Positions 12,555-50,977 of a DNA stretch of 64,000 nt are shown piece after piece (the first letter of the stretch is position 1; the number at the start of each line of letters is the position of its first letter). The position numbers and the translations under genes were made by a program. This DNA comes from an uncultured Methanosarcinales archaeon (lineage in GTDB: Archaea > Nanobdellota > Nanobdellia > Woesearchaeales > DSVV01): assembly GCA_964385055.1 (NCBI GenBank), contig CAYLMH010000005.1, positions 2,801 through 66,800 on the forward strand. Direction: 5' to 3'. The notes below the pieces were generated by a model, which searched no databases, had not been told where the DNA came from, and saw only the letters and a list, made by a program, of their open reading frames with translations.

Positions 12555-14240
12555 CTACATCTCTTCAGGCGCTTCAACACCAAGCAACCGTAACCCATTC
12601 TGAAGCACAATTTTCACAGAAGCAAGTAAATACAAACGAGCAAGCTTCACATCCTCTTCTGCTTTCAAGACAGGAACATCATGGTAATAACTATTGAATT
12701 CCTGACAAAGATCTAATAAATAACGACAGATATACGACGGTTTGTAGTGAGAAGCTGCATCCATAATAATTGCAGGAAATTTCTCAAGTATGCTCGCAAG
12801 CGCAAGCTCACGCTCTCCAAAATGAGAAAGAGAAATATCTAACGCAAGCCCCCCATGCTTTCGCAAGATGCTCGAAATACGCGCATGCGTATATTGGACA
12901 TATGGTCCTGTTTCACCTTCAAAACTCAGACTTTCTTTAGGATTATAGACCATATCTTTTGCAGCGTCAATTTTCAACATGTGAAATTTCAGCGCAGCAA
13001 TCCCAACTTGCCGGCTTCTGTGCTGTAAAATAACTGGTTCAAGATCAGGGTGACGTTTTTGAATTTCTTCTTGAGCAAGGGTTGTTAATTCAGCGATGAG
13101 TGTATCTGCGTCAACAACAGTTCCTTCACGGCTTTTCATCTTTCCTTCTGGAAGATTAACCATCCCATAACTAAGATGATAGCAGCCGTCTGCTGATTTA
13201 TGTCCGAGCTTTTTCAGGATAGCAAACAATTGCTGAAAATGCAAATTCTGCTCAGAACCAACAACATAGATCGATCTATTCAATTTATAATCTTCAAATT
13301 TTTTCAATGCAAGATAAAGATCCTGCGTGATGTAAATCGTTGTACCATCAGAACGAACAAGGACTTTGTCAGGCAAACCAAATTCCTGAAGTGAAGCAAC
13401 AATCGCTCCGTCTTTGTCAAAGAATATTTCCTTCTTAAGTCCCTCTTGCGCAATTTCTTTACCAAAAAGATAAATCTCACTTTCATAATAATATTTGTCA
13501 AAAGAAACACCGAGCTTCGCGTACGTTTGTTCAAAACCCGCATATACCCAGCTATTCATTTTTTTCCAGAGTGCAACAATTTCTTTATCTCCTTTTTCCC
13601 AGAGACGAAGCATCTCCTGCGCTTCTTGTTCAAGTTCAGGATGTTCAGCAGATTTTTTCGCGAAGAGAACATAGAAATCACCGACAAAGAAATCTGATTT
13701 TTTATCAGGATTTTTGTTGTGTCCCCATTTTTTGTAGGCAAGCATGGATTTGCAGATGTGAATCCCACGATCATTCACAAGACATCCTTTGATCACATCG
13801 TTACCAAGGAAAGAAAGAATACGAGAGATACTGTCTCCAAGAGAGATGTTACGAACATGCCCGAGATGAAGCGGTTTGTTGGTGTTTGGACTGGAAAACT
13901 CCACCATAATCTTTTCACCAGACATTTGCTGTCCATATTTTTCTTTTTGCTGCTGAATTTTGTGGAGAACGCTTGTCGAAAGATTTTTTTTATTGAGGTA
14001 AAAATTCACATACGGGCCGTTAGGCATGACTTTATCGAGAAGAGAAGAATCCATTCCGCTCAGTTTTGCGGCAAGGTCATGCGCGATAAGCTGCGGGCTT
14101 TTCTTATGAATCTTAGACAAGGCAAAACAAGGAAATGCAAAATCACCTAATGCGGAGTTTGGAGGAGTCTCCAGTTTTATATCAATATTTTCAGGAACAT
14201 GCTTTTTGAGAAGCACAATAATTGCGTCGGAATAGTTCAT
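12555..14240 (-). CDS. argS: Arginyl-tRNA synthetase
   Basis: Class I HIGH-type motif SPNTNKPLHLGHVRN, ArgRS-like layout and a C-terminal anticodon-binding region ending in M. TATA TTTTATATA lies about 27 nt upstream of the ATG. Confidence 0.9.
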   Translation of the reverse strand: MNYSDAIIVLLKKHVPENIDIKLETPPNSALGDFAFPCFALSKIHKKSPQLIAHDLAAKLSGMDSSLLDKVMPNGPYVNFYLNKKNLSTSVLHKIQQQKEKYGQQMSGEKIMVEFSSPNTNKPLHLGHVRNISLGDSISRILSFLGNDVIKGCLVNDRGIHICKSMLAYKKWGHNKNPDKKSDFFVGDFYVLFAKKSAEHPELEQEAQEMLRLWEKGDKEIVALWKKMNSWVYAGFEQTYAKLGVSFDKYYYESEIYLFGKEIAQEGLKKEIFFDKDGAIVASLQEFGLPDKVLVRSDGTTIYITQDLYLALKKFEDYKLNRSIYVVGSEQNLHFQQLFAILKKLGHKSADGCYHLSYGMVNLPEGKMKSREGTVVDADTLIAELTTLAQEEIQKRHPDLEPVILQHRSRQVGIAALKFHMLKIDAAKDMVYNPKESLSFEGETGPYVQYTHARISSILRKHGGLALDISLSHFGERELALASILEKFPAIIMDAASHYKPSYICRYLLDLCQEFNSYYHDVPVLKAEEDVKLARLYLLASVKIVLQNGLRLLGVEAPEEM

Positions 14241-14324
14241 CAATATTGTGGAGAGAAGGTGGTATATAAAAGTTTCATCGGAGTAATAAGGATCTGAACA
14301 ATTTTAGAAACGCAAAAAAAATAA

Positions 14325-14611
14325 CACAGACGCACCGCTCGTAGGGCATCCCAATCGCAGCAAGCTGCGGAGTATTGCCCACTCGCAATTCGGTGCGTCT
14401 GTGGAATTGTGAAATTGGGTCACAGCAAGCTGTGGGGTATTATTTCGAGCTATGCTCGTAATACTATGGACCTTTGGTCCAAAGTAAACCCAAATTTCAC
14501 AATAACAACAACGATGGCGGCCTACGGCCAAAACACTGGCTTCGCAACAGTATTTTGTCCTACGGGGCACTCCGAAGGAGCCAAACCACGCCCCGTTGGC
14601 GCCACGTTGTT
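14325..14611. ncRNA. Candidate structured ncRNA, unassigned (three consecutive closed helical domains)
   Basis: GC-rich island in AT-rich DNA. Closing stems are 14325-14337/14391-14403 (13 bp perfect), 14406-14420/14488-14503 and 14504-14518/14598-14611. Inner hairpins are nested. An A-run and a T-run flank it. Confidence 0.45.
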
Positions 14612-14640
14612 ATTTTTTATTATCACTGTTTTATTACCCC

Positions 14641-14705
14641 ATACACGCACGAGCAAAAGCCTTAATGTCAGGGGGACCCATTGCACTTGAGTGCAATGGG
14701 GTTAT
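14641..14705 (+). repeat. Intergenic hairpin module, copy 2
   Basis: ATACACGCAC, 16 nt, TGTCAGGGGGACCC, stem CCCATTGCAC/GTGCAATGGG with loop TTGA, then GGGGTTATTATG. Confidence 0.75.
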
Positions 14706-14785
14706 TATGAAAATTCAATGCATGAAATGTTTCTTTGAAAAACATAAGAATGAAGCAAACTAATGAAAGAATAAACAACTAAAAA

Positions 14786-15496
14786 CTAACCAACATAATT
14801 CATCTGTTTTTCTTTTGCTTCTTCTGTGACGACTTTACTCTTTTCCATAAGTTCCTGCAGCTTTTTCTCAAACCTTTCTGCTGTTTGGACTAGTGGTTTT
14901 GGATCTACTTTTAGCCCTAGATATTTATCAAGCACTTCAATTATTTTTGCCGCTGCTTTGCTATCTGGCAATTTTGAATGCGTATCCGCAAACAACGCGA
15001 CTGTATCTGTTTTTGTTTTGAGGAGCAATGCAGATGTTACGCCGACGATAATTCCTTCCTTTAATGCGTTGACTCCGAGTTTTTTGAAACTCTCGAGCTT
15101 TTTTTGATTAAGTGTATACACATATGCCTGAGATTCTGGCGCTTCAGCAGGGGCACCAACACCTTCAATAGTTATAATCTCTTTTGCGCTGAGCTGCTTT
15201 GCAACTTCATCAATGTACTCTGCGATTGCCCACTCAACACCCATGGTTCCTGTAATCGCGTGAATGATGAGAAGATTATATTCTTGATTGTAATAAAGCC
15301 CGACTGGCGGAACAAGCTCATTATCGTGAACAACAACAGTTGCAGGCATTTCTTCTATCCAGAATGTACCGATAAGCTCGCATTTCAAATGTTGAAGAAG
15401 ATATTCTGTGGTAATTGTTCCGACGAGACCAAATCCCGGGAAGCCTTCGATGATCGTCACATTCTTTGGTTTTTTTGTGAGTTGAATTTGCTGCAT
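14786..15496 (-). CDS. PAC2 (proteasome assembly chaperone) family protein
   Basis: N-terminus IIEGFPGFGLVGTITTEYL is typical of the archaeal PAC2 family. Confidence 0.55.
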   Translation of the reverse strand: MQQIQLTKKPKNVTIIEGFPGFGLVGTITTEYLLQHLKCELIGTFWIEEMPATVVVHDNELVPPVGLYYNQEYNLLIIHAITGTMGVEWAIAEYIDEVAKQLSAKEIITIEGVGAPAEAPESQAYVYTLNQKKLESFKKLGVNALKEGIIVGVTSALLLKTKTDTVALFADTHSKLPDSKAAAKIIEVLDKYLGLKVDPKPLVQTAERFEKKLQELMEKSKVVTEEAKEKQMNYVG

Positions 15497-15547
15497 ACTC
15501 TATTTTTGTGGAAAGGGGTATTTATAGATGTCGGTTTTTTTTTGAAT

Positions 15548-16144
15548 TCATTTGTGGATTCTGTTCCCGCCATACCATGTTAAAAATACATTTCTGAAAT
15601 CACCAGTATATCGTGCTCTTCTTGTTCTATCATCTATCTCCTCTTTGATTTGATGAATATTCACCCACCCTGTTGCTCTCTCGACTACTTCTTCAGGATT
15701 ATATCTAAATGGTCCTTCATATACGGCAGTTAATATTTTTGCAAGTTCATTGTTTCTTCCTCTGTCAGAATTATTTTTAATTGTCGTCCCATTTTGACTC
15801 AAGGTGAAATTTGGAGGACACTCGTCAAGTCCATAAAATATTTCTTCTTTTGCTTCACGATAGCCTGCTTCCCAATAATCTTCTCCATGACGAACATGTC
15901 CTGCAACAGAAGAGTGAAAGCAGAGACCTCCTAATTTTTTTTTTCTGCTTCGCATTGGAAGCAAAAGATCTTGAAGTGTATCATCCCTAAACACTAAAAT
16001 GTGCACAACTCTATGCCTATATCCATACAAATGCGCATTGTCGTATGATGCAATCCCTCGTACCCTATCGTCAAGTGTGACCACATCGAGATATTCAATT
16101 CCCGGTTGGAGGTTTCCTGCTCCGACAAAGCCTTTTGTACCCAT
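15548..16144 (-). CDS. NUDIX hydrolase
   Basis: Nudix box GHVRHGEDYWEAGYREAKEEIFYG (Gx5Ex7REUxEExGU pattern). Confidence 0.7.
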   Translation of the reverse strand: MGTKGFVGAGNLQPGIEYLDVVTLDDRVRGIASYDNAHLYGYRHRVVHILVFRDDTLQDLLLPMRSRKKKLGGLCFHSSVAGHVRHGEDYWEAGYREAKEEIFYGLDECPPNFTLSQNGTTIKNNSDRGRNNELAKILTAVYEGPFRYNPEEVVERATGWVNIHQIKEEIDDRTRRARYTGDFRNVFLTWYGGNRIHK

Positions 16145-16386
16145 AGATTAAGAACCGTTCTTCTCCTTTTTAATACTTCTATATAGACTATAAAGAGATT
16201 TTTGTTCTTCTTCCAAAAGGTCATAATCTTTATAAATAAAACCCTATTTCTCTGTATCGGTAGCTTTCACTATCCTTTAGATGTAAATTATCACATTTTG
16301 AAAATTCATTTGCATACATTAAAAAAGGGGGAATAAACAACAGTGGTGACAATGTCAGTCAATAGAGCGATTGCATGTAACATATC

Positions 16387-17655
16387 ATGGTAGTACTCAC
16401 ATCAGAGCAACTTGAAGAAAGATTTAATACAGAGCGACCCCTTCGTCTTGCAGACCCAATAGATAATTTTGTTCTCTTTGTTGTTGGTGCACATGCTGCT
16501 GGAAAGGATACTATTCTTGGACGAATGCAAGAATTAAGACGAGAAGAGGGTGATGTTCTTCAATATGGTGCATATAGAAAATTAGAATATTGGACCGATC
16601 GTGAACTTCGTGAAGGAGAAGGGATAGTCAGAGAACCTGGTGCAATTCATAAATCCCCTGATGAGTTCCTTGGACACTCCGGAAAATTTCTCGCATGGTA
16701 TCGAAGTAGTAATGGAAGCTTTTACGCGTTTCCTTCTGAGCTTTTTCCTCGAGACAAAGACCCTACAATCGCAATGGTGCACGTTGCGACAGACTTAGGA
16801 TTACAAGTTTGGCAAGAAAATCAAACACTTCCTCATCATATTACTGCATTCATTAATGTTCCTGGAAAAGACGATAGGAAAGCACGGGTACGGTCGCGTT
16901 TGATTGATTCCGAAGGGAATCCTCCTTCTGAAGCAACTCTTGAAGCAAGTCTTGCGGAAATGTCACGTATTAATGCTTTCTTTGTTGGGCATCCTGACCT
17001 TTATGATGTGATGTATAATAACTGTAATCCAAGTGATCGGGGTATAAGAAAAGCAATTTATGGAAATCCACAGGAAAGTGTCCAGAAAGACATTGCTCTT
17101 CGAATTAACGCACTTTGCCATCTTCATCGTGACGCGAGTTTGAGAAGGTCAGGAAATGGTATTTCAATTGCATCGCTTTGTGATCAGTATACTCGAAGAA
17201 TTTCTTCTGATCTCTTTGGTTGTGAGTTGGAAGCACTTAAGACTGATGTTCCTCTAGAGGGTCAAGTTCAGCGTGCTGTTAAAGCCTACGCAGACCAAGC
17301 GCATTTGGATTCTAATAAACTCTATCCCATGCTTGAGCCAGTTACTATTCGCAGTATTGATTTACACCCCCGAGGTTCGGAAAAAGCAGGAGTAGTTGTT
17401 GTTAATCTTACTCCTCAGCATCATATTCCTACTTCTGTTGCTCAATTACTTGTAAGGACTCCGGAGTCTCCTGATTATCATGTTCTTCGCATCCTTGGTC
17501 AACGAATTTACGGAGAAACAAAAACACGACCAGACTATCTTGTTAATAAAAATGGGAATCTTGTAGGGATTTCTTGCTCTCTTAGCGATATGCGACCAAG
17601 AGATCAACAATCAGGACAATATCATCGCTTAGAAATTCGTTTGGGTTATAACTAA
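16387..17655 (+). CDS. Guanylate-kinase-like P-loop domain fused to an uncharacterised 230-aa C-terminal domain
   Basis: Walker A GAHAAGKDT. WTDRELREGEG and FLAWYRSSNGSFYAF resemble GMP-kinase TTRxPRxGE and FLEW..YGT. Confidence 0.5.
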   Translation: MVVLTSEQLEERFNTERPLRLADPIDNFVLFVVGAHAAGKDTILGRMQELRREEGDVLQYGAYRKLEYWTDRELREGEGIVREPGAIHKSPDEFLGHSGKFLAWYRSSNGSFYAFPSELFPRDKDPTIAMVHVATDLGLQVWQENQTLPHHITAFINVPGKDDRKARVRSRLIDSEGNPPSEATLEASLAEMSRINAFFVGHPDLYDVMYNNCNPSDRGIRKAIYGNPQESVQKDIALRINALCHLHRDASLRRSGNGISIASLCDQYTRRISSDLFGCELEALKTDVPLEGQVQRAVKAYADQAHLDSNKLYPMLEPVTIRSIDLHPRGSEKAGVVVVNLTPQHHIPTSVAQLLVRTPESPDYHVLRILGQRIYGETKTRPDYLVNKNGNLVGISCSLSDMRPRDQQSGQYHRLEIRLGYN

Positions 17656-17672
17656 TAAAAAAGTTCTATTCT

Positions 17673-18641
17673 CTATTTTGCGATCTCTTTTTTCTCTTGT
17701 TCCTGAAGCGCATACGTGATTGTTGCCTCAATGTTGTGGACGAGAATTTCTAAAACACTTCTACAATAAACCACAAGCATAAGTTCTTCAGGGGAAATTG
17801 TCTTTTTTACTTGTGCAATTTCTTTTATTAGCGCGTCACGCACTTTATAGATTGTGGTTGCTTTATGATAATCAAATTTGTAAAAAAGATCATAATACAC
17901 GCGAACTGTTCCAAATATTTCACGCAATATACCAATTGTTTTTGGATGAACCTTTTTCATGGTCAAGACTTCTCGCGCAGCATATCTGAGCACGTCTCCT
18001 ATTTTATTGAGGTTCATGAGGATTGCGTACAACAAAATATTCTTGTATTTTTCCGGATACCCTATTCTGTTTAACAATCGCTCACAATATGCGATGAAAA
18101 TAAGGATATTGAAAAATTTTTGATCCATTGTTTCCAAAAGAACTTTATCGTCGTTTTCACATGCTTTCACAAACTCATCGCACGCATCCATAAGAAGAAG
18201 GAATGTTCGTCGTAACATGGATTCTAGCTCTTCAAATGATGGCTTTGAGATGCTTTTATAGACAAAATAATTTTCTTTCTGCTCAATGATTTGCATTCCA
18301 ACCCAGCGGCGGAGTTCTTCATGAAGCAATGTTGCGACTAAGACTTTCTCTCCAGTTCTATAATGCACTGCTGTTTTGTTCTTGAAATTTACTTTTATAA
18401 TATCATATCCTCTTCTGTACGCAGCGCGGAGAACGATGAATATGGATGTTCTATCAAGATCTGTGATGTCTAATGTAATTTCCTGAAGTGTATCTTCACG
18501 CTTCGTTGAAACTTCAAGCATATTGTCCTTTTCAACGACTTCTAGTTCATCGCCTTTTTTGACATTATACTTTTTCGTCCATTGTCTTGGAAGAGAAATT
18601 AATTGTGTCGAATCCGCAATCTGAATTACTTTTCGTCCCAT
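17673..18641 (-). CDS. AbrB/SpoVT-domain plus PhoU-like regulator
   Basis: N-terminus VIQIADSTQLISLPRQWTKKYNVKKGDELEV (AbrB swapped-hairpin type) followed by a helical PhoU-like repeat region. Confidence 0.6.
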   Translation of the reverse strand: MGRKVIQIADSTQLISLPRQWTKKYNVKKGDELEVVEKDNMLEVSTKREDTLQEITLDITDLDRTSIFIVLRAAYRRGYDIIKVNFKNKTAVHYRTGEKVLVATLLHEELRRWVGMQIIEQKENYFVYKSISKPSFEELESMLRRTFLLLMDACDEFVKACENDDKVLLETMDQKFFNILIFIAYCERLLNRIGYPEKYKNILLYAILMNLNKIGDVLRYAAREVLTMKKVHPKTIGILREIFGTVRVYYDLFYKFDYHKATTIYKVRDALIKEIAQVKKTISPEELMLVVYCRSVLEILVHNIEATITYALQEQEKKEIAK

Positions 18642-18736
18642 GAAGTATAGAATTGCTTACAAGTATATATATTTTGCTGTGCTTTTATATAATCCTTATC
18701 TTTTATTAACGGTCTCTTATCTACCTTATAGATTGC

Positions 18737-19747
18737 TTACACAATCCACACTTTATCGTCGATTATTGCGACAAGAACTTCTTTCTTTTCTCCTTTTTGA
18801 TATATTTCAGGATTCTCTACTTTTACGCTTTGGTATGTTTCTGGATGAAGGATTTCAACATCTGGGTATTCTTTTGTAATCTGGACTCTTCTGAACGTTT
18901 CTGGTGTTGCGCAGATTTTCATGCGCGCTTTCTCGTCAATCGTTGTTCGTTTTCCGTTTTTAAGATTTGTTCCTTGCAATTGTTTTCCAATATTGGTGAG
19001 TTTTAGGTATTTCTTTTCATACTCGACAATCGTGTTTACTTTGTACGATGGAAGTCGCACGCTTGCGTTAACCCGGTAAATGTCTTTGCTCGTTTGTCTG
19101 CTCTTGCTGTACAGTTCACCATGTGTTTTTCCTACTGCCCCGAATTTTTCGACGATTTTGTTGGTGATGATGGGAAGATATTGCTGTTTTGTGACGTAGT
19201 AATCAATGCCATTGGTGACTTCTTCCATTTTGGTTACAAACACGCCTTTTTCATTTGCGCGACCTACTTCCTGAAGAATGAATTCATGCGCTTTTTTGAG
19301 GACTTCTTTGTTTTCTCCTCGAAGTTGCAGAATTCCTTCAAAATATTCTGTTCTTGCTCGTGTGCATTTATCGCACATAATATGTTTTACTTTTATTGGA
19401 AATTCATGTTCTTCAAGGAGTTTTTGTTCATCGATCGTCGCTTCTGTCCGAAGCGTGACTGTTCCCATCTGCACTTTTCCATGCTCTGCTTTTAATTCAA
19501 TGTCTACATCAATCGCATCTGGTTGAATAATGAAATTGCAATGCTGCACCACTGCTTCTTTCATCGCTTCTTCTTCAGGTTTTGGATGCTTCCACTCTCT
19601 TTGATATTTGTAGGAACCGCAACTTTCGCAAATAAGCAGCGTATGCTCTTGATACGACTTCAATGTGGTGTGTTTTTTGCTGAAGCACTCATTACACAAG
19701 ACCGCGTTTTTCTGCTCTACTGCTTTTCCACATTGGATGCATTTCAT
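18737..19747 (-). CDS. NMD3 family (ribosomal large-subunit export/maturation) protein
   Basis: N-terminal Cys clusters CIQCGK..CNEC and CESCGSYKYQREW. Confidence 0.7.
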   Translation of the reverse strand: MKCIQCGKAVEQKNAVLCNECFSKKHTTLKSYQEHTLLICESCGSYKYQREWKHPKPEEEAMKEAVVQHCNFIIQPDAIDVDIELKAEHGKVQMGTVTLRTEATIDEQKLLEEHEFPIKVKHIMCDKCTRARTEYFEGILQLRGENKEVLKKAHEFILQEVGRANEKGVFVTKMEEVTNGIDYYVTKQQYLPIITNKIVEKFGAVGKTHGELYSKSRQTSKDIYRVNASVRLPSYKVNTIVEYEKKYLKLTNIGKQLQGTNLKNGKRTTIDEKARMKICATPETFRRVQITKEYPDVEILHPETYQSVKVENPEIYQKGEKKEVLVAIIDDKVWIV

Positions 19748-19881
19748 ATTGGTGAGTGTGCTTTGTTCCTATATAAACTTATGTTGCCTAAACTCCTTTC
19801 TCCCTGTTGCTTTTCTGTCACTACCAAATAATAGTAAATCTAGGGGAACCTTTAAATATAACCTCGAATTTAACGTTTATT

Positions 19882-20760
19882 ATGGGGTCATTAAGAAAAT
19901 TTCCTGGTTTAGAAGTACTTATGGAGGCTCTTCAAAAAGACACTGGTCTCCTTGACATGGCAATAACAGGTATTCCTGAATCACAACAAGAAATTCTGTA
20001 CACTACTCTTTTAGGGATGTCTCCAGAAGAGAGGCATAGGCTCTTGAGAATTTGCATCACGCATGGTTCTGAAGATCGTTCTTTTCTTCTTCAAACAATA
20101 GGAAATGGACTTATTGACAAACTCACTGCCGTTTATAATCGAACAAAATTTAACACTGATCTGAATGCAGCAATTGAAGTTGTTGATCGTACTTATCAGC
20201 TTCCTGCTCTCTTACAAAAAGAAAGACGATTAGAAGCGGTTTTAGGTCTTCCTCCTCGAGCATCTGCATCTCATAGTGATGTTACTCTACTCCTTCTTGA
20301 TATTGACAAATTTAAACGTGTTAATGATGTTTATGGACATCCAACAGGCGATCGTGCTCTTCAGCTCGTTGCAACAATTGCTGTTCAAAGTCTTCGCTTA
20401 GATGATCATCAACGCTTTTATCGATATGGTGGCGAAGAGTTTGCGGTTATATTACCTTATACTTCTCTTGAGCAGGGAATTATTGTTGCAGAACGTATTC
20501 GTCAGAATGTTGAGGAGAGACTCGCAGATTCACTTCCTAAAAAAGGGAGATCTCCTATTCGAGGAATTACTGTTTCTGTAGGTCTTGCAAACTATCGCGC
20601 AACAACAGCCATGGCGACTGAACTTATTAATCAGGCGGACTTTGCATTATATGCCGCAAAATATGCGGGAAGAAATTGTGTGAGAGTATACGACCAATCT
20701 CTGCTTGGAACGAAAGTGCAATCTGCCTATCTCAGAAAGTTGCAAAAAGAAGAGCAATAA
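19882..20760 (+). CDS. GGDEF-domain diguanylate cyclase
   Basis: DKLTAVYNRTKF, LLLLDIDKFKRVNDVYGHPTGD and RYGGEEFAVILP. Start chosen at ATG 19882; the ORF track begins at TTG 19807. Confidence 0.8.
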   Translation: MGSLRKFPGLEVLMEALQKDTGLLDMAITGIPESQQEILYTTLLGMSPEERHRLLRICITHGSEDRSFLLQTIGNGLIDKLTAVYNRTKFNTDLNAAIEVVDRTYQLPALLQKERRLEAVLGLPPRASASHSDVTLLLLDIDKFKRVNDVYGHPTGDRALQLVATIAVQSLRLDDHQRFYRYGGEEFAVILPYTSLEQGIIVAERIRQNVEERLADSLPKKGRSPIRGITVSVGLANYRATTAMATELINQADFALYAAKYAGRNCVRVYDQSLLGTKVQSAYLRKLQKEEQ

Positions 20761-20800
20761 AACCCAAACATTTTTAACGTTCCTTCTTTCATCTTTTTTT

Positions 20801-21427
20801 ATGCAATTTAAGGAAATACTCAAAAAAACATGGTGGTTTATCTGGGAAAGCGATAGCTGGTGGAGTTGGCCAGTAAACCTACTTCTCGCGTTTATTCTCA
20901 TTAAATTTATTGTGTATCCTGGTTTAGGGTTTATTTTTGGCACCGCGTTTCCTGTTGTCGCTGTTGTTTCTGGAAGTATGGAGCATGATGGAAGTTTTTC
21001 AGATTGGTGGCTGAGTAGCGCGTATTGTTCAGCATCTTGCTCTCAAGAGGATTGGTACGCAGGATATGGCATTACTGAGGAGCAATTTAAGGAATTCTCT
21101 TTCAAAAATGGTTTTAACAAAGGAGACATTATGGTTCTGAAAGGGGTGGAACCTAAAAATATTAAAATTGGAGATGTTTTAGTATTTCAAAGCGCGTATG
21201 GAAATGAGCCCATTATTCATCGTGTTGTCGCAATTTTTGGTGATGAAACGACTGGTTTTGTGTACCAAACAAAAGGGGATCACAATGGTGATTCTGGCAA
21301 TATTGATAAAGAAATTCAACAAGATGCAGTGTATGGAAAAGCAATATTCCGGATTCCATTCCTGGGCTGGATTAAGATTGCGTTTGTGTGGCTTTTCAGC
21401 CCGTTCATTGATCTTGTTTTTGGTTAA
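20801..21427 (+). CDS. Signal peptidase I (archaeal Sec11/S26B type)
   Basis: TM anchor, catalytic Ser box VVSGSME, IIHRV box and KGDHNGDSG. Confidence 0.75.
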   Translation: MQFKEILKKTWWFIWESDSWWSWPVNLLLAFILIKFIVYPGLGFIFGTAFPVVAVVSGSMEHDGSFSDWWLSSAYCSASCSQEDWYAGYGITEEQFKEFSFKNGFNKGDIMVLKGVEPKNIKIGDVLVFQSAYGNEPIIHRVVAIFGDETTGFVYQTKGDHNGDSGNIDKEIQQDAVYGKAIFRIPFLGWIKIAFVWLFSPFIDLVFG

Positions 21428-21457
21428 TATGTTTTATAATTATTGAGGTGGTTTACG

Positions 21458-21772
21458 ATGATGTTTTGTCCAAAATGTGGAGGATTACTTCTTCCAAAAG
21501 TAGATGGCAACAAAAAAACAATGCACTGCAAATGCGGTTATAGTACAAAGCAGGTTGACAGCGCAGTTATTTCTGAAAGAATGCAGGAAAAACAGGCAAT
21601 TAGTGTTGTAGAGAAGGAAATTGAACCACACCCGCTCACGATTGCAGAATGCCCTAAATGCAAGCATCGCAAGGCATATTTCTGGACAGTGCAGACAAGA
21701 GCTTCTGACGAACCAGAAACAAAGTTCATGAAATGCGAGAAATGCGAGCATGTCTGGCGGGATTATAGTTAG
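21458..21772 (+). CDS. tfs: Transcription factor S (TFS / RpoM-like)
   Basis: Two zinc ribbons (CPKCGG..CKCGY; CPKCKH..CEKCEH) and an acidic-loop motif QTRASDEPET. GAGGTG lies 8 nt upstream of the ATG. Confidence 0.85.
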   Translation: MMFCPKCGGLLLPKVDGNKKTMHCKCGYSTKQVDSAVISERMQEKQAISVVEKEIEPHPLTIAECPKCKHRKAYFWTVQTRASDEPETKFMKCEKCEHVWRDYS

Positions 21773-21777
21773 AACTT

Positions 21778-21800
21778 TGTTTTTTTTGTTTGCTTTTTGT
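21778..21800 (+). terminator. Oligo-T terminator
   Basis: GTTTTTTTTGTTTGCTTTTTGTT starts 6 nt after the tfs stop. Confidence 0.45.
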
Positions 21801-21881
21801 TGCAATTAAAAAAATATATAAAGCAGGTGCTACTCTATATATTTTCGAAAATAGTATAAAGATCCGTTTGGAGGTGTCTGT

Positions 21882-22076
21882 ATGGCAGGCGAAGATGACG
21901 ACAGCTTTTTAGAAGAAGATGCAGGAGATAAAGATCAACAGAACTTTGATGAGGATGTTGATAACGATGAGATCACTCCTGGAGAAGAAGGATTCTTACA
22001 AGGTTATGATTCTGCTGAAGGCGAAAGCGAAGAAAAAACAGAGAAGCCTAAAGAAGAAGAGGAAGAAGGAAAGTAA
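21882..22076 (+). CDS. Small highly acidic protein (hypothetical)
   Basis: 64 aa, Asp/Glu-rich, with GGAGGTG upstream of the ATG. Confidence 0.5.
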   Translation: MAGEDDDSFLEEDAGDKDQQNFDEDVDNDEITPGEEGFLQGYDSAEGESEEKTEKPKEEEEEGK

Positions 22077-22159
22077 GGTTTTCTTTTTTATTTTTTTATT
22101 TCTGATTATTTGATCTTTTGTATTTCTTATCATGTTAATTGTTCTAATTTTTAGTAAAC

Positions 22160-22216
22160 ACACCATTGCTGCTGCAATGGGTCCCCCTGACATTTTGCCT
22201 TTGCAGATGCGTGTTT
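22160..22216 (-). repeat. Intergenic hairpin module, copy 3a (reverse orientation)
   Basis: The reverse complement reads AAACACGCAT, 13 nt, AATGTCAGGGGGACCC, then stem CCATTGC/GCAATGG. Confidence 0.7.
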
Positions 22217-33338: not shown

Positions 33339-33418
33339 AAACGAATTTCTGGATGATGATGGATATAAAGGTTTCTGAAACAATAGTAACACAAACAGAA
33401 AATTATGAAACTGCAAAA

Positions 33419-33650
33419 AACAACAACAATGGCACAGACGGTCTTGTCGCTTTGCTCCAAGCCCTACTCCGCGAACGAGAACACCTCACTTCGTAAGGCA
33501 ACCTCGTTCGCTCCGTCTGGCCATGTTGTTTTTTGCTTCTTCAAACCCGCCGCTGGCGCACGACGCGACGGGGGACGCCCCACCGGGGTGTCGCGTAGGA
33601 CGTGGAACGAAGTGACACGGCCGTCGTGCCGCCTGCTGCGGCGGGTGGTT
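33419..33650. ncRNA. Candidate structured ncRNA, unassigned (two closed helical domains)
   Basis: GC-rich island between two divergent promoters. Domain 1 is 33419-33534: a long terminal stem with an inner perfect 9-bp GCGAACGAG/CTCGTTCGC. Domain 2 is 33545-33646: ACCCGCCGC/GCGGCGGGT and GGCGCACGACG/CGTCGTGCCGCC enclosing two hairpins. Confidence 0.5.
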
Positions 33651-44524: not shown

Positions 44525-45148
44525 ATGGTCTACGTTGTGCAGCCGACAACAAGGATACTTTTTTCTATGGTTCTTGAAGACACAGCAGTGCAGGATTTTC
44601 TTGAAACAATGAAGAGACATCACGCAGATACTGCGCTTCACTCGAAAAGAGTAGGGGTATATACTCTGGATATATATGTCACAAAACACATGGCAACGGA
44701 AAGCGGTATAATCGTCATAACACAAGACAATCTCAGCGAAGCATTACGCTGGGGTGCTGCGGGAGTATATCATGATGCAGGAAAATTATTAACTCCTGTT
44801 GAAATATTAGCAAAGCCAGGAAAGCTCGATGAGAAAGAAAGAGCAAGAATGAATAGGCATCCTCTCCTTGGACTTCAGATTTTAGATGAGTATACAAGAG
44901 ATGAAGCAGCGTATCATGCTGCAGTAGGACACCATGAATATAAAACAGGAGCATCATATCCACGACACAAAAGAAGAGGGGAAGATGAACTTGTCGAAGC
45001 AGTTGCGCTTGCGGATTTCTACGATGCGCTGGCAAGTAAACGAGGATACAAACCGGCATTTTCAAAAGATGAAATAGAACGAATAATGCACGAAGAATTT
45101 AATGGAAACCCACAACATCTTGATGAACTTTTAAGAAGATCTGCATAA
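44525..45148 (+). CDS. HD-GYP-type phosphohydrolase
   Basis: HSKRVG, YHDAGKLLTP, RMNRHP and GHHEYKTGASYPR (an HHExxxGxxYP variant). Confidence 0.7.
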   Translation: MVYVVQPTTRILFSMVLEDTAVQDFLETMKRHHADTALHSKRVGVYTLDIYVTKHMATESGIIVITQDNLSEALRWGAAGVYHDAGKLLTPVEILAKPGKLDEKERARMNRHPLLGLQILDEYTRDEAAYHAAVGHHEYKTGASYPRHKRRGEDELVEAVALADFYDALASKRGYKPAFSKDEIERIMHEEFNGNPQHLDELLRRSA

Positions 45149-45359
45149 CACGGAAACGCCACTTACATTATGCTCGTCTATCCCATGCCTTTAGGCATGG
45201 GTTTTACGGCTTGCAAACTAATGGTGGCGTTTCCGTGGGATGTAAAATCGGCGCTTACGGAATCTCTGCGCTACATCCTCGCACTAAATGCGCAAAACTC
45301 GTTTTGCGTATATTACAAATCGCAGATTTGAAATAGTGCAAGGTTTTGCGCCGATTTTT
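45149..45359. ncRNA. Structured GC-rich element in a convergent gap (ncRNA or compound bidirectional terminator)
   Basis: 14-bp stem CACGGAAACGCCAC/GTGGCGTTTCCGTG (45149-45162/45224-45237) encloses CCCATGCC/GGCATGGG. AAAATCGGCGC (45244-45254) pairs with GCGCCGATTTT (45348-45358) around further hairpins. Confidence 0.4.
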
Positions 45360-50849: not shown

Positions 50850-50977
50850 ACGTATTTGCTTACACGCACCAGCAACGCTTCTCTGTAGTCTAGCATCGCA
50901 AAAAGTATCTTTATATTTTTATTAAAAGAAATCAAGAAAAGACATTTAAACTTCCCGAAAATTATACTTATTATATT

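Follow-up and report, generated by a model that had tools for sequence, protein, structure and literature searches.

A GC-rich, well-folding island upstream of argS in a woesearchaeal genome is probably a lineage-specific mosaic of REP/MITE-like structured repeats

The window analysed here, a stretch of 64,000 nt, belongs to an archaeal genome (G000) whose assembly has a size of 1.49 Mb and is 86.7% complete. It contains a gap of 541 nt between two genes read from the minus strand, argS (12555-14243) and a gene of the PAC2 family (14786-15496). The closest relatives of the ArgRS are encoded by Woesearchaeota MAGs (73-75% amino-acid identity), while its best matches outside DPANN were Bacteroidota proteins (43-46% identity) and not proteins of other archaea, which hints at a bacterial-type enzyme that may be shared by transfer. 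For comparison, we used a sister species (G001), the two nearest public Woesearchaeota MAGs (L009 and L010), and further genomes of the order. Upstream of argS, a TATA-box-like sequence was read (Table 1), which is host sequence outside the repeats described below and likely serves as the argS promoter. Homology to the argS locus of the sister species extends through this box and ends at about 14284, ahead of the first repeat unit.

The original prediction had placed a GC-rich island of three consecutive closed domains in this gap, and re-analysis confirmed its structural description. Local GC content of the island is 0.45-0.52 compared to about 0.30-0.45 in the flanks, and three closed domains were found in the minimum free energy (MFE) folds of both strands. 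The first domain is closed by a perfectly paired stem of 13 bp (CACAGACGCACCG at 14325-14337 and CGGTGCGTCTGTG at 14391-14403). The closing stem of the second domain (ATTGTGAAATTGGGT at 14406-14420 and ACCCAAATTTCACAAT at 14488-14503) is present as well, consisting of 15 bp and one bulged A, so that it is imperfect. A repeat search recovered the two near-identical inner hairpins (CGCAGCAAGCTGCG at 14356-14369 and CACAGCAAGCTGTG at 14421-14434), and a check of the sequence located the A8 and T6 runs on the two sides of the island. The helix GGACAAAATACTG/CAGTGTTTTGGCC of the minus strand indeed harbors one G-U pair corresponding to C-A on the plus strand, and additionally one A.G mismatch. Folding of the plus strand resulted in an MFE of -126.6 kcal/mol (z = -8.5) and folding of the minus strand in -136.1 kcal/mol (z = -7.2), with none of 100 dinucleotide shuffles being equally stable in either case.

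Known RNA or protein genes were not detected in the island. Both ORFs predicted in this region (14304-14570 on the minus strand and 14409-14690 on the plus strand) had been suspected to be spurious; neither revealed a Pfam match, and a protein-coding island was therefore discarded. Likewise, RNase P and SRP signatures had not been recognized before, and an Rfam scan of the whole 64-kb window gave zero matches at gathering score. At a permissive threshold (E <= 10), the section 14150-14850 gave five matches at chance level (E 1.2-7.2), none of them spanning the island and two clipping its edges (CrcZ at 14286-14342 and RUF1 at 14602-14778). With no Rfam family lying over the island at either threshold, identities as RNase P, SRP, or a ribozyme were rejected, as was that of a tRNA or tmRNA, since ARAGORN found just a tRNA-Ser at 50977.

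Table 1. Repeat units and short sequence features in the gap between argS and the PAC2-family gene (window coordinates)
Feature	Position	Strand	Remarks
TATA-box-like sequence of argS, TTTTATATA	14264-14272	minus	read from the sequence; the TTG start of argS (14243) follows after about 20-30 nt
A8 run	14314-14321	U8 on the minus strand, right after the domain-1 hairpin	abuts the left end of family A
Family A unit, 186 nt	14320-14505	not assigned	domain 1 (14325-14403) and domain 2 (14406-14503)
Family B (B1) unit, about 117 nt	14501-14617	minus (weak call)	Y-shaped three-way junction; TIR AATAACAACAACG / CGTTGTTATT
T6 run	14613-14618	not assigned	outer part of the right TIR (GTTGTTATTTTTTGC in full copies)
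Family C unit, short form	14641-14714	not assigned	outside the originally reported interval, same mosaic; 24 nt beyond family B

When the island was searched against its own assembly, its first two domains were found to belong to a repeat family, named family A, with three copies in G000. In this genome, 14318-14442 is repeated at two further loci and 14443-14500 seemed to be unique; the two short copies lack about 48 nt of additional domain-2 hairpins. The sister species harbors at least ten copies, and there the whole of 14320-14505/14511 recurs, with full-length copies being 76-96% identical. Since the whole stretch recurs in G001 and an alignment of 11 copies fixes the unit, domains 1 and 2 represent a single repeat unit, whose termini read ATAA/C...CACA/ATAA (slashes marking the boundaries derived from this alignment). 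In each domain, the inner hairpin is followed by a GG(A/G)GTATT tag. The 11-copy alignment revealed no terminal inverted repeat spanning the unit; each domain forms its own palindrome, and the ends read ATAAC... and ...CACAATAA. Some copies of G001 contain further hairpins nested within domain 1 or domain 2. Diverged copies in three other genomes (G002, G053, and G023) form this two-domain fold from stems of quite different sequence, and they retain the ATAA ends, a GAATT-like linker, and the GGGGTATT tag after each inner hairpin. Matches to a model of domain 1 (R2) were patchy, occurring in 13 of 61 genomes and being strong solely within the genus of G000 and in a single genome from another family. 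In regard to neighboring genes, family A copies are mostly co-directional, but both orientations occur, and the copy in the window has the minority orientation. The A8 run at the left end is flank or target sequence and no feature of the family, because other copies lack such a run in the left flank.

At several family A copies (L002 on contig C11 of G000, and L132 and L133 of G001), the reading frame located upstream terminates within the element, 4-6 nt past its left boundary, and takes its stop codon from the TAA of the ATAAC end. Elsewhere in the window, at 45142-45242, we found a hairpin element resembling domain 1 (ATAACACGGAAACGCCAC...GTGGCGTTTCCGTGGGATG), which differs in its core and gave a weak R2 match (E = 3e-4); a similar element lies at G000:C37:3068-3168.

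The third domain represents a second family, family B. By sequence search, 14501-14619 recurs at about 10 loci, and G000 carries 13 family B copies with the core TGGCGGCCTACGG. Their general TIR is (GC)AAAAA(T/C)AACAACAAC / GTTGTTRTTTTT(GC), the outer GCAAAAA of the left arm being absent from the window copy where family A abuts. The T6 run was assigned to the right TIR based on an alignment of B copies with their flanks and on a search with the TIR pattern. A second subtype is closed by CCCGCCGCAGC / GCGGCGGG, and B-type TIRs also enclose different cores, termed B2 and B3; extra hairpins nested inside family B copies were identified, too. Using a covariance model (R1), we detected family B in 23 of the 61 genomes of the order with 0-42 copies each. 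Within the genus, R1 gave 17 matches in G000 and 13, 0, 1, and 0 in its four relatives, the 13 belonging to G001.

Head-to-head pairs of family B are common in the relatives. Such a B-type pair is also located in the window next to hisS (33416-33648), where both units (33416-33535 and 33541-33648) were matched by R1; one is B2-like with AACAACAAC ends and the other is B1 with CCCGCCGC ends. A direct repeat, CCTACGG / CCTACG, borders the first inner hairpin in the B1 unit of the island and in further copies of B1; it might be the trace of an earlier nested insertion, by which a small hairpin entered a less complex palindrome. For the GGGG of the second arm of B1, there are two potential partners, a 5' CCCC and a 3' CCCCC, and covariation was seen with each of them. 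A further repeat family, 'D' (AGAGACGCTCGACAAATGCTCGCGTCTCAACGCACAAGGTCTCACAGGAACGTTCGACCTTGTGCG), with two hairpins lies directly beside many B-type elements (G000:C1:~14050-14126, C19:~14950-15020, C25, C54, and C20:~2080-2150 as well as L123 and L137 of G001).

Family C, of which G000 carries 61 copies, is built of a ACACGCAC..GCAAA box, a variable spacer, ATGTCAGGGGGACCC, a perfect covarying hairpin (14677-14700 in the window), and the tag GGGGTTATTAT. Many copies are extended by about 100 nt upstream (AAATAAATAATAAAAGATTAGGGATTC..AAGGACTGTAAGGCGATTCAAG..GCGAATAGTTGCT), and some have a second, inverted hairpin instead. Between divergent genes, C copies are scarce (5 of about 57), and their right end is typically located 40-80 nt from the 3' end of a gene. 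The tag GGGGT(T)ATTA is intergenic in 79% of cases in a genome of which about 10% is intergenic. We also considered that family C might represent a conserved 5' UTR carrying a Shine-Dalgarno sequence (GGGGT) and a start codon, but this was rejected, as downstream ORFs are absent or tiny and unrelated.

The original prediction had tied a single RNA gene of 287 nt to argS, and this part of it did not survive the comparison: the domains belong to two multi-copy families, with repeat boundaries coinciding with domain boundaries, and the region upstream of argS in G001, L009, and L010 has no homolog of the island but different, unstructured sequence. In G001, the position equivalent to 14284 is followed by 85 unrelated nucleotides, then by a long copy of family C and by a gene for a small acidic protein, which is likewise the neighbor of argS in L009 and L010. 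The PAC2 gene of G001 is followed by a C unit, so that a C copy is kept downstream of PAC2, and then by a gene for an ABC-type permease. Families A and B were not found downstream of PAC2 in G001-G004, nor at the argS locus of G001. An orthologous single-copy housekeeping ncRNA was therefore excluded, since the syntenic argS/PAC2 loci of the relatives lack the island; the three-domain island is a young, species-specific assembly.

The gene orders of the two sister species are connected by a rearrangement. While G001 shows the orders argS-C-acidic protein and ABC permease-C-PAC2, G000 shows argS-A-B-C-PAC2 and acidic protein-C-C-ABC permease. Sequence of G001 aligns to window positions 25611-22174 in reverse and to 14643-15540 in forward direction, and the overlap falls within the C unit; G000 thus carries an inversion of about 7.5 kb with breakpoints in inverted C copies. 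It spans 14680-22190 of the window (contig C5 of G000) in comparison with contigs C16 and C34 of G001.

Families A and B, too, differ between the sister species in the sites that they occupy. Alignments at 4 of the 12 family B copies of G001 run straight through the element into G000, and these sites are orthologously filled; the remaining eight face short or different intergenic DNA in G000. Several A copies of G001 lie opposite near-empty sites, and at contig C38 the flanks in G000 abut. Besides A+B+C in the island, we identified mosaic arrangements of A+C at C34, of a B-like unit and C at C13, and of head-to-head B pairs.

Target-site duplications were searched for as direct repeats flanking 12 B copies and 11 A copies, and none were found. 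Comparisons of filled and empty sites between G001 and G000 revealed presence and absence of elements with no clean duplication, the junctions being too diverged for a precise scar. In the 86.7% complete assembly of G000, no autonomous element with B-type ends was detected: the TIR pairs measure only 110-135 nt and none encloses an ORF. A Y1/RAYT transposase (PF01797) is absent from G000. Of the 61 genomes, 23 carry family B and 38 do not; PF01797 occurs in 10 and 11 of them, respectively, and does not track B copy number, and none of the repeat motifs flank the Y1 genes at 13 inspected loci. Based on these three results, a mobilizer of the Y1/RAYT or IS200 type was rejected. One IS200-type Y1 transposase gene is located beside NMD3 in the sister species (G001:C16:22398-22745, L152), and the matching position of G000 (window ~19750-19810) has none.

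Covariation, which had been proposed as a check on the island, is real, but it was found among dispersed repeat copies and not among orthologs of one gene. An alignment of 12 B copies of G000 (A1) displayed compensatory changes in 18 of 37 pairs. In 39 B copies from 20 genomes, both sides had changed in 34 of 37 pairs, 93.6% of cells were paired versus 39-50% in slid controls, and the covariation score was 0.535 versus 0.07-0.13 for slid partners with 0/500 shuffles reaching the observed values; as this alignment was fitted to the covariance model R1, these pairing and covariation figures are somewhat inflated. The 1391 cells contained 12 G.U pairs (0.9%), 28 A.C combinations (2.0%), which correspond to G.U on the opposite strand, and 61 other mismatches. 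For a family of RNA genes, this is a low share of wobble pairs; it fits DNA palindromes, ssDNA, or mutational correction of palindromes. In regard to the strand, the counts are equal within G000 (6:6), and the asymmetry across genomes (28 A.C versus 12 G.U) weakly favors the minus strand of the window, the strand suspected originally. In 22 of 31 callable cases (22:9), a gene transcribed away from family B begins beyond its left side (as oriented in the window), often 40-100 nt off, and the minus sense thus usually runs in the same direction as neighboring genes. Together with the missing hallmarks of a textbook MITE or REP, the orientation of the copies would also suit a cis-acting RNA role, e.g., as terminator or insulator, or targeted integration.

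Families A, B, and C are multi-copy, intergenic, modular, nested, polymorphic between sister species, patchy in distribution, and substrates of rearrangement. Since the copies are scattered through the genome and come and go between close relatives, they are better described as repeat or mobile DNA than as a housekeeping RNA. Overall, we consider it probable that the island is a lineage-specific mosaic of REP/MITE-like structured repeats and, as such, of a broadly known kind and not a new housekeeping RNA. It consists of one A unit (domains 1 and 2), one abutting B unit (domain 3), and a C unit 24 nt further on, which came together recently. In their behavior, the elements resemble non-autonomous repeats that move or expand, as known from REP/BIME elements or structured MITEs, and their folds may be kept as the element is recognized or copied as a folded single strand, of DNA or possibly RNA, by some enzyme. 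At the argS locus, the repeats would sit passively between the 3' end of PAC2 and the argS promoter and at most act, with hairpin and U-run, as a barrier to read-through on the minus strand. Some observations do not sit easily with this mosaic of repeats. Families A and B revealed no target-site duplication, family A has no TIR spanning the unit, and in G000 neither an autonomous partner with the same ends nor a Y1/RAYT-type transposase was found. Furthermore, covariation of internal helices in 20 genomes and conserved unpaired GGGGTATT tags seem to exceed what decaying junk would need, and like the orientation bias of family B (22:9) they would also fit a cis-acting RNA role.

These latter points also support the main rival explanation, by which the repeats are domesticated cis-acting RNA modules, i.e., bidirectional terminators or insulators or stabilizers of 3' ends under selection at the RNA level, with the island as a tandem of two modules that protects the promoter of argS against transcription running on from PAC2. 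In favor of such modules, all helices covary strongly, short motifs in unpaired positions are conserved, the 22:9 bias and the 28:12 excess of A.C over G.U point to the same strand, the ends of family B carry T5-6 runs on both strands, and in the window a U8 run on the minus strand comes directly after domain 1, some 40 nt ahead of the TATA box of argS. We nevertheless regard RNA modules as rather unlikely, as related genomes carry between 0 and 42 copies, 8 of 12 sites are unshared between the sister species, wobble pairs are nearly absent, and family A occurs in both orientations relative to genes with a T-run that is no feature of the family. The almost purely Watson-Crick complementarity would suit palindromes acting as dsDNA sites (cruciform or protein-binding) in recombination or chromosome organization, whose compensatory changes stem from quasi-palindrome correction by template switching. 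Inversion breakpoints inside C copies and palindromy extending into the flanks of family B are in line with such sites; yet simple protein-binding dyads would not be expected to form branched three-way junctions, in which the unpaired junction strands (CCTACGG / CCTACG) are conserved, or to carry expansions at helix tips, and ordinary homologous recombination between repeats is enough for the inversion. We consider dsDNA sites a highly improbable explanation.

Almost certainly wrong is the reading as one three-domain ncRNA gene of about 287 nt linked to argS. It would account for three closed domains of very low folding energy, for the missing Rfam assignment, and for a helix plus U-tract at either end, but domain 3 occurs alone at no fewer than 12 other loci, domains 1 and 2 occur without domain 3 at all other loci, the arrangement is absent upstream of argS in G001 and the nearest MAGs, and the unit boundaries are repeat boundaries. 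Going beyond the mosaic of repeats, a more speculative proposal, which we put forward as possible but not as the likelier case, is that A, B, and C form one superfamily of self-propagating tag-plus-hairpin elements of Woesearchaeales. This archaeal counterpart of REPIN-RAYT would be copied as folded single strands, leaving no target duplication, by an enzyme that is neither Y1/RAYT nor a recognizable DDE transposase; gene orientation and a position 40-100 nt upstream of start codons would then reflect targeted integration or a domesticated insulator role.

For annotation, the result removes a false candidate for a missing housekeeping RNA from a DPANN genome and shows that islands of high GC content and stable folding in such AT-rich genomes usually represent stacks of repeat modules. 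It also shows that these tiny archaeal genomes host several families of elaborately folded repeats, which turn over between sister species, are patchy across the order, maintain multi-helix folds through compensatory changes, and mediate inversions. Copies of A, B, and C lend themselves to the typing of strains and to the detection of rearrangement hot spots among MAGs of Woesearchaeota. As no identifiable transposase, duplication scar, or RAYT accompanies the three families, finding their copier would fill a gap in our picture of archaeal mobile DNA.

Several known systems resemble these repeats. BOX elements of Streptococcus pneumoniae are bacterial and consist of boxA-boxB-boxC modules following a fixed A-Bn-C grammar. 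The repeats described here are similarly modular, being composed of a few kinds of structured boxes whose number and order vary, and they are likewise intergenic and predicted to fold stably, but their sequence is unrelated, and A, B, and C occur singly, too. Structured MITEs are represented by the Correia elements of Neisseria, bcr1 of B. cereus, and ERIC. Features in common with these are the small non-coding units, the TIRs of family B, insertion polymorphism between relatives, intergenic location, and the capacity to fold as RNA. In contrast to structured MITEs, a duplication was not detectable, a search of G000 for a parent insertion sequence whose ends match found none, a TIR spanning the unit is missing from family A, and internal helices covary across families of the order.

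REP, BIME, and REPIN elements of Proteobacteria are mobilized by RAYT (Y1 HUH) transposases (PMC2817692, PMC3116915, PMC3733652). They share with the island that they are extragenic and multi-copy, consist of a hairpin and a short conserved tag, and form mosaics and inverted pairs; they also lack target-site duplications, show compensatory stem changes, lie mainly after gene ends, and serve as substrates of rearrangement. Compared to REP sequences, the units of the island are bigger (117-186 nt versus 20-40 nt) and branched, and they are tagged by GGGGT(T)ATT, located 3' of the hairpin, and by ATAAC at unit ends in place of GTAG or CGTC. Unlike REPIN-RAYT, the host G000 is an archaeon without a RAYT/Y1 gene, and there is no correlation with Y1 in its relatives. 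The REP/RAYT papers found, which are not a survey, deal with bacteria, and in PMC3733652 the word 'archaea' appears only within the reference list.

IS200/IS605-derived PATEs and hairpins processed by HUH enzymes (PMC6006769) differ in that G000 has no TnpA and its repeats do not end in an asymmetric LE/RE pair as IS200/IS605 does. They are alike in having hairpin ends and no duplication, possibly a fixed short sequence at both junctions (ATAA beside family A), and possibly single-strand intermediates. Since REPIN-RAYT fails on the tag and the RAYT gene, the classical MITE on duplication, and family A on the TIR, we classify A, B, and C as a variant of known repeats and not as a new RNA class. 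According to a recent census, archaea in which MITEs reach the highest density include a woesearchaeal genome (PMC11602168).
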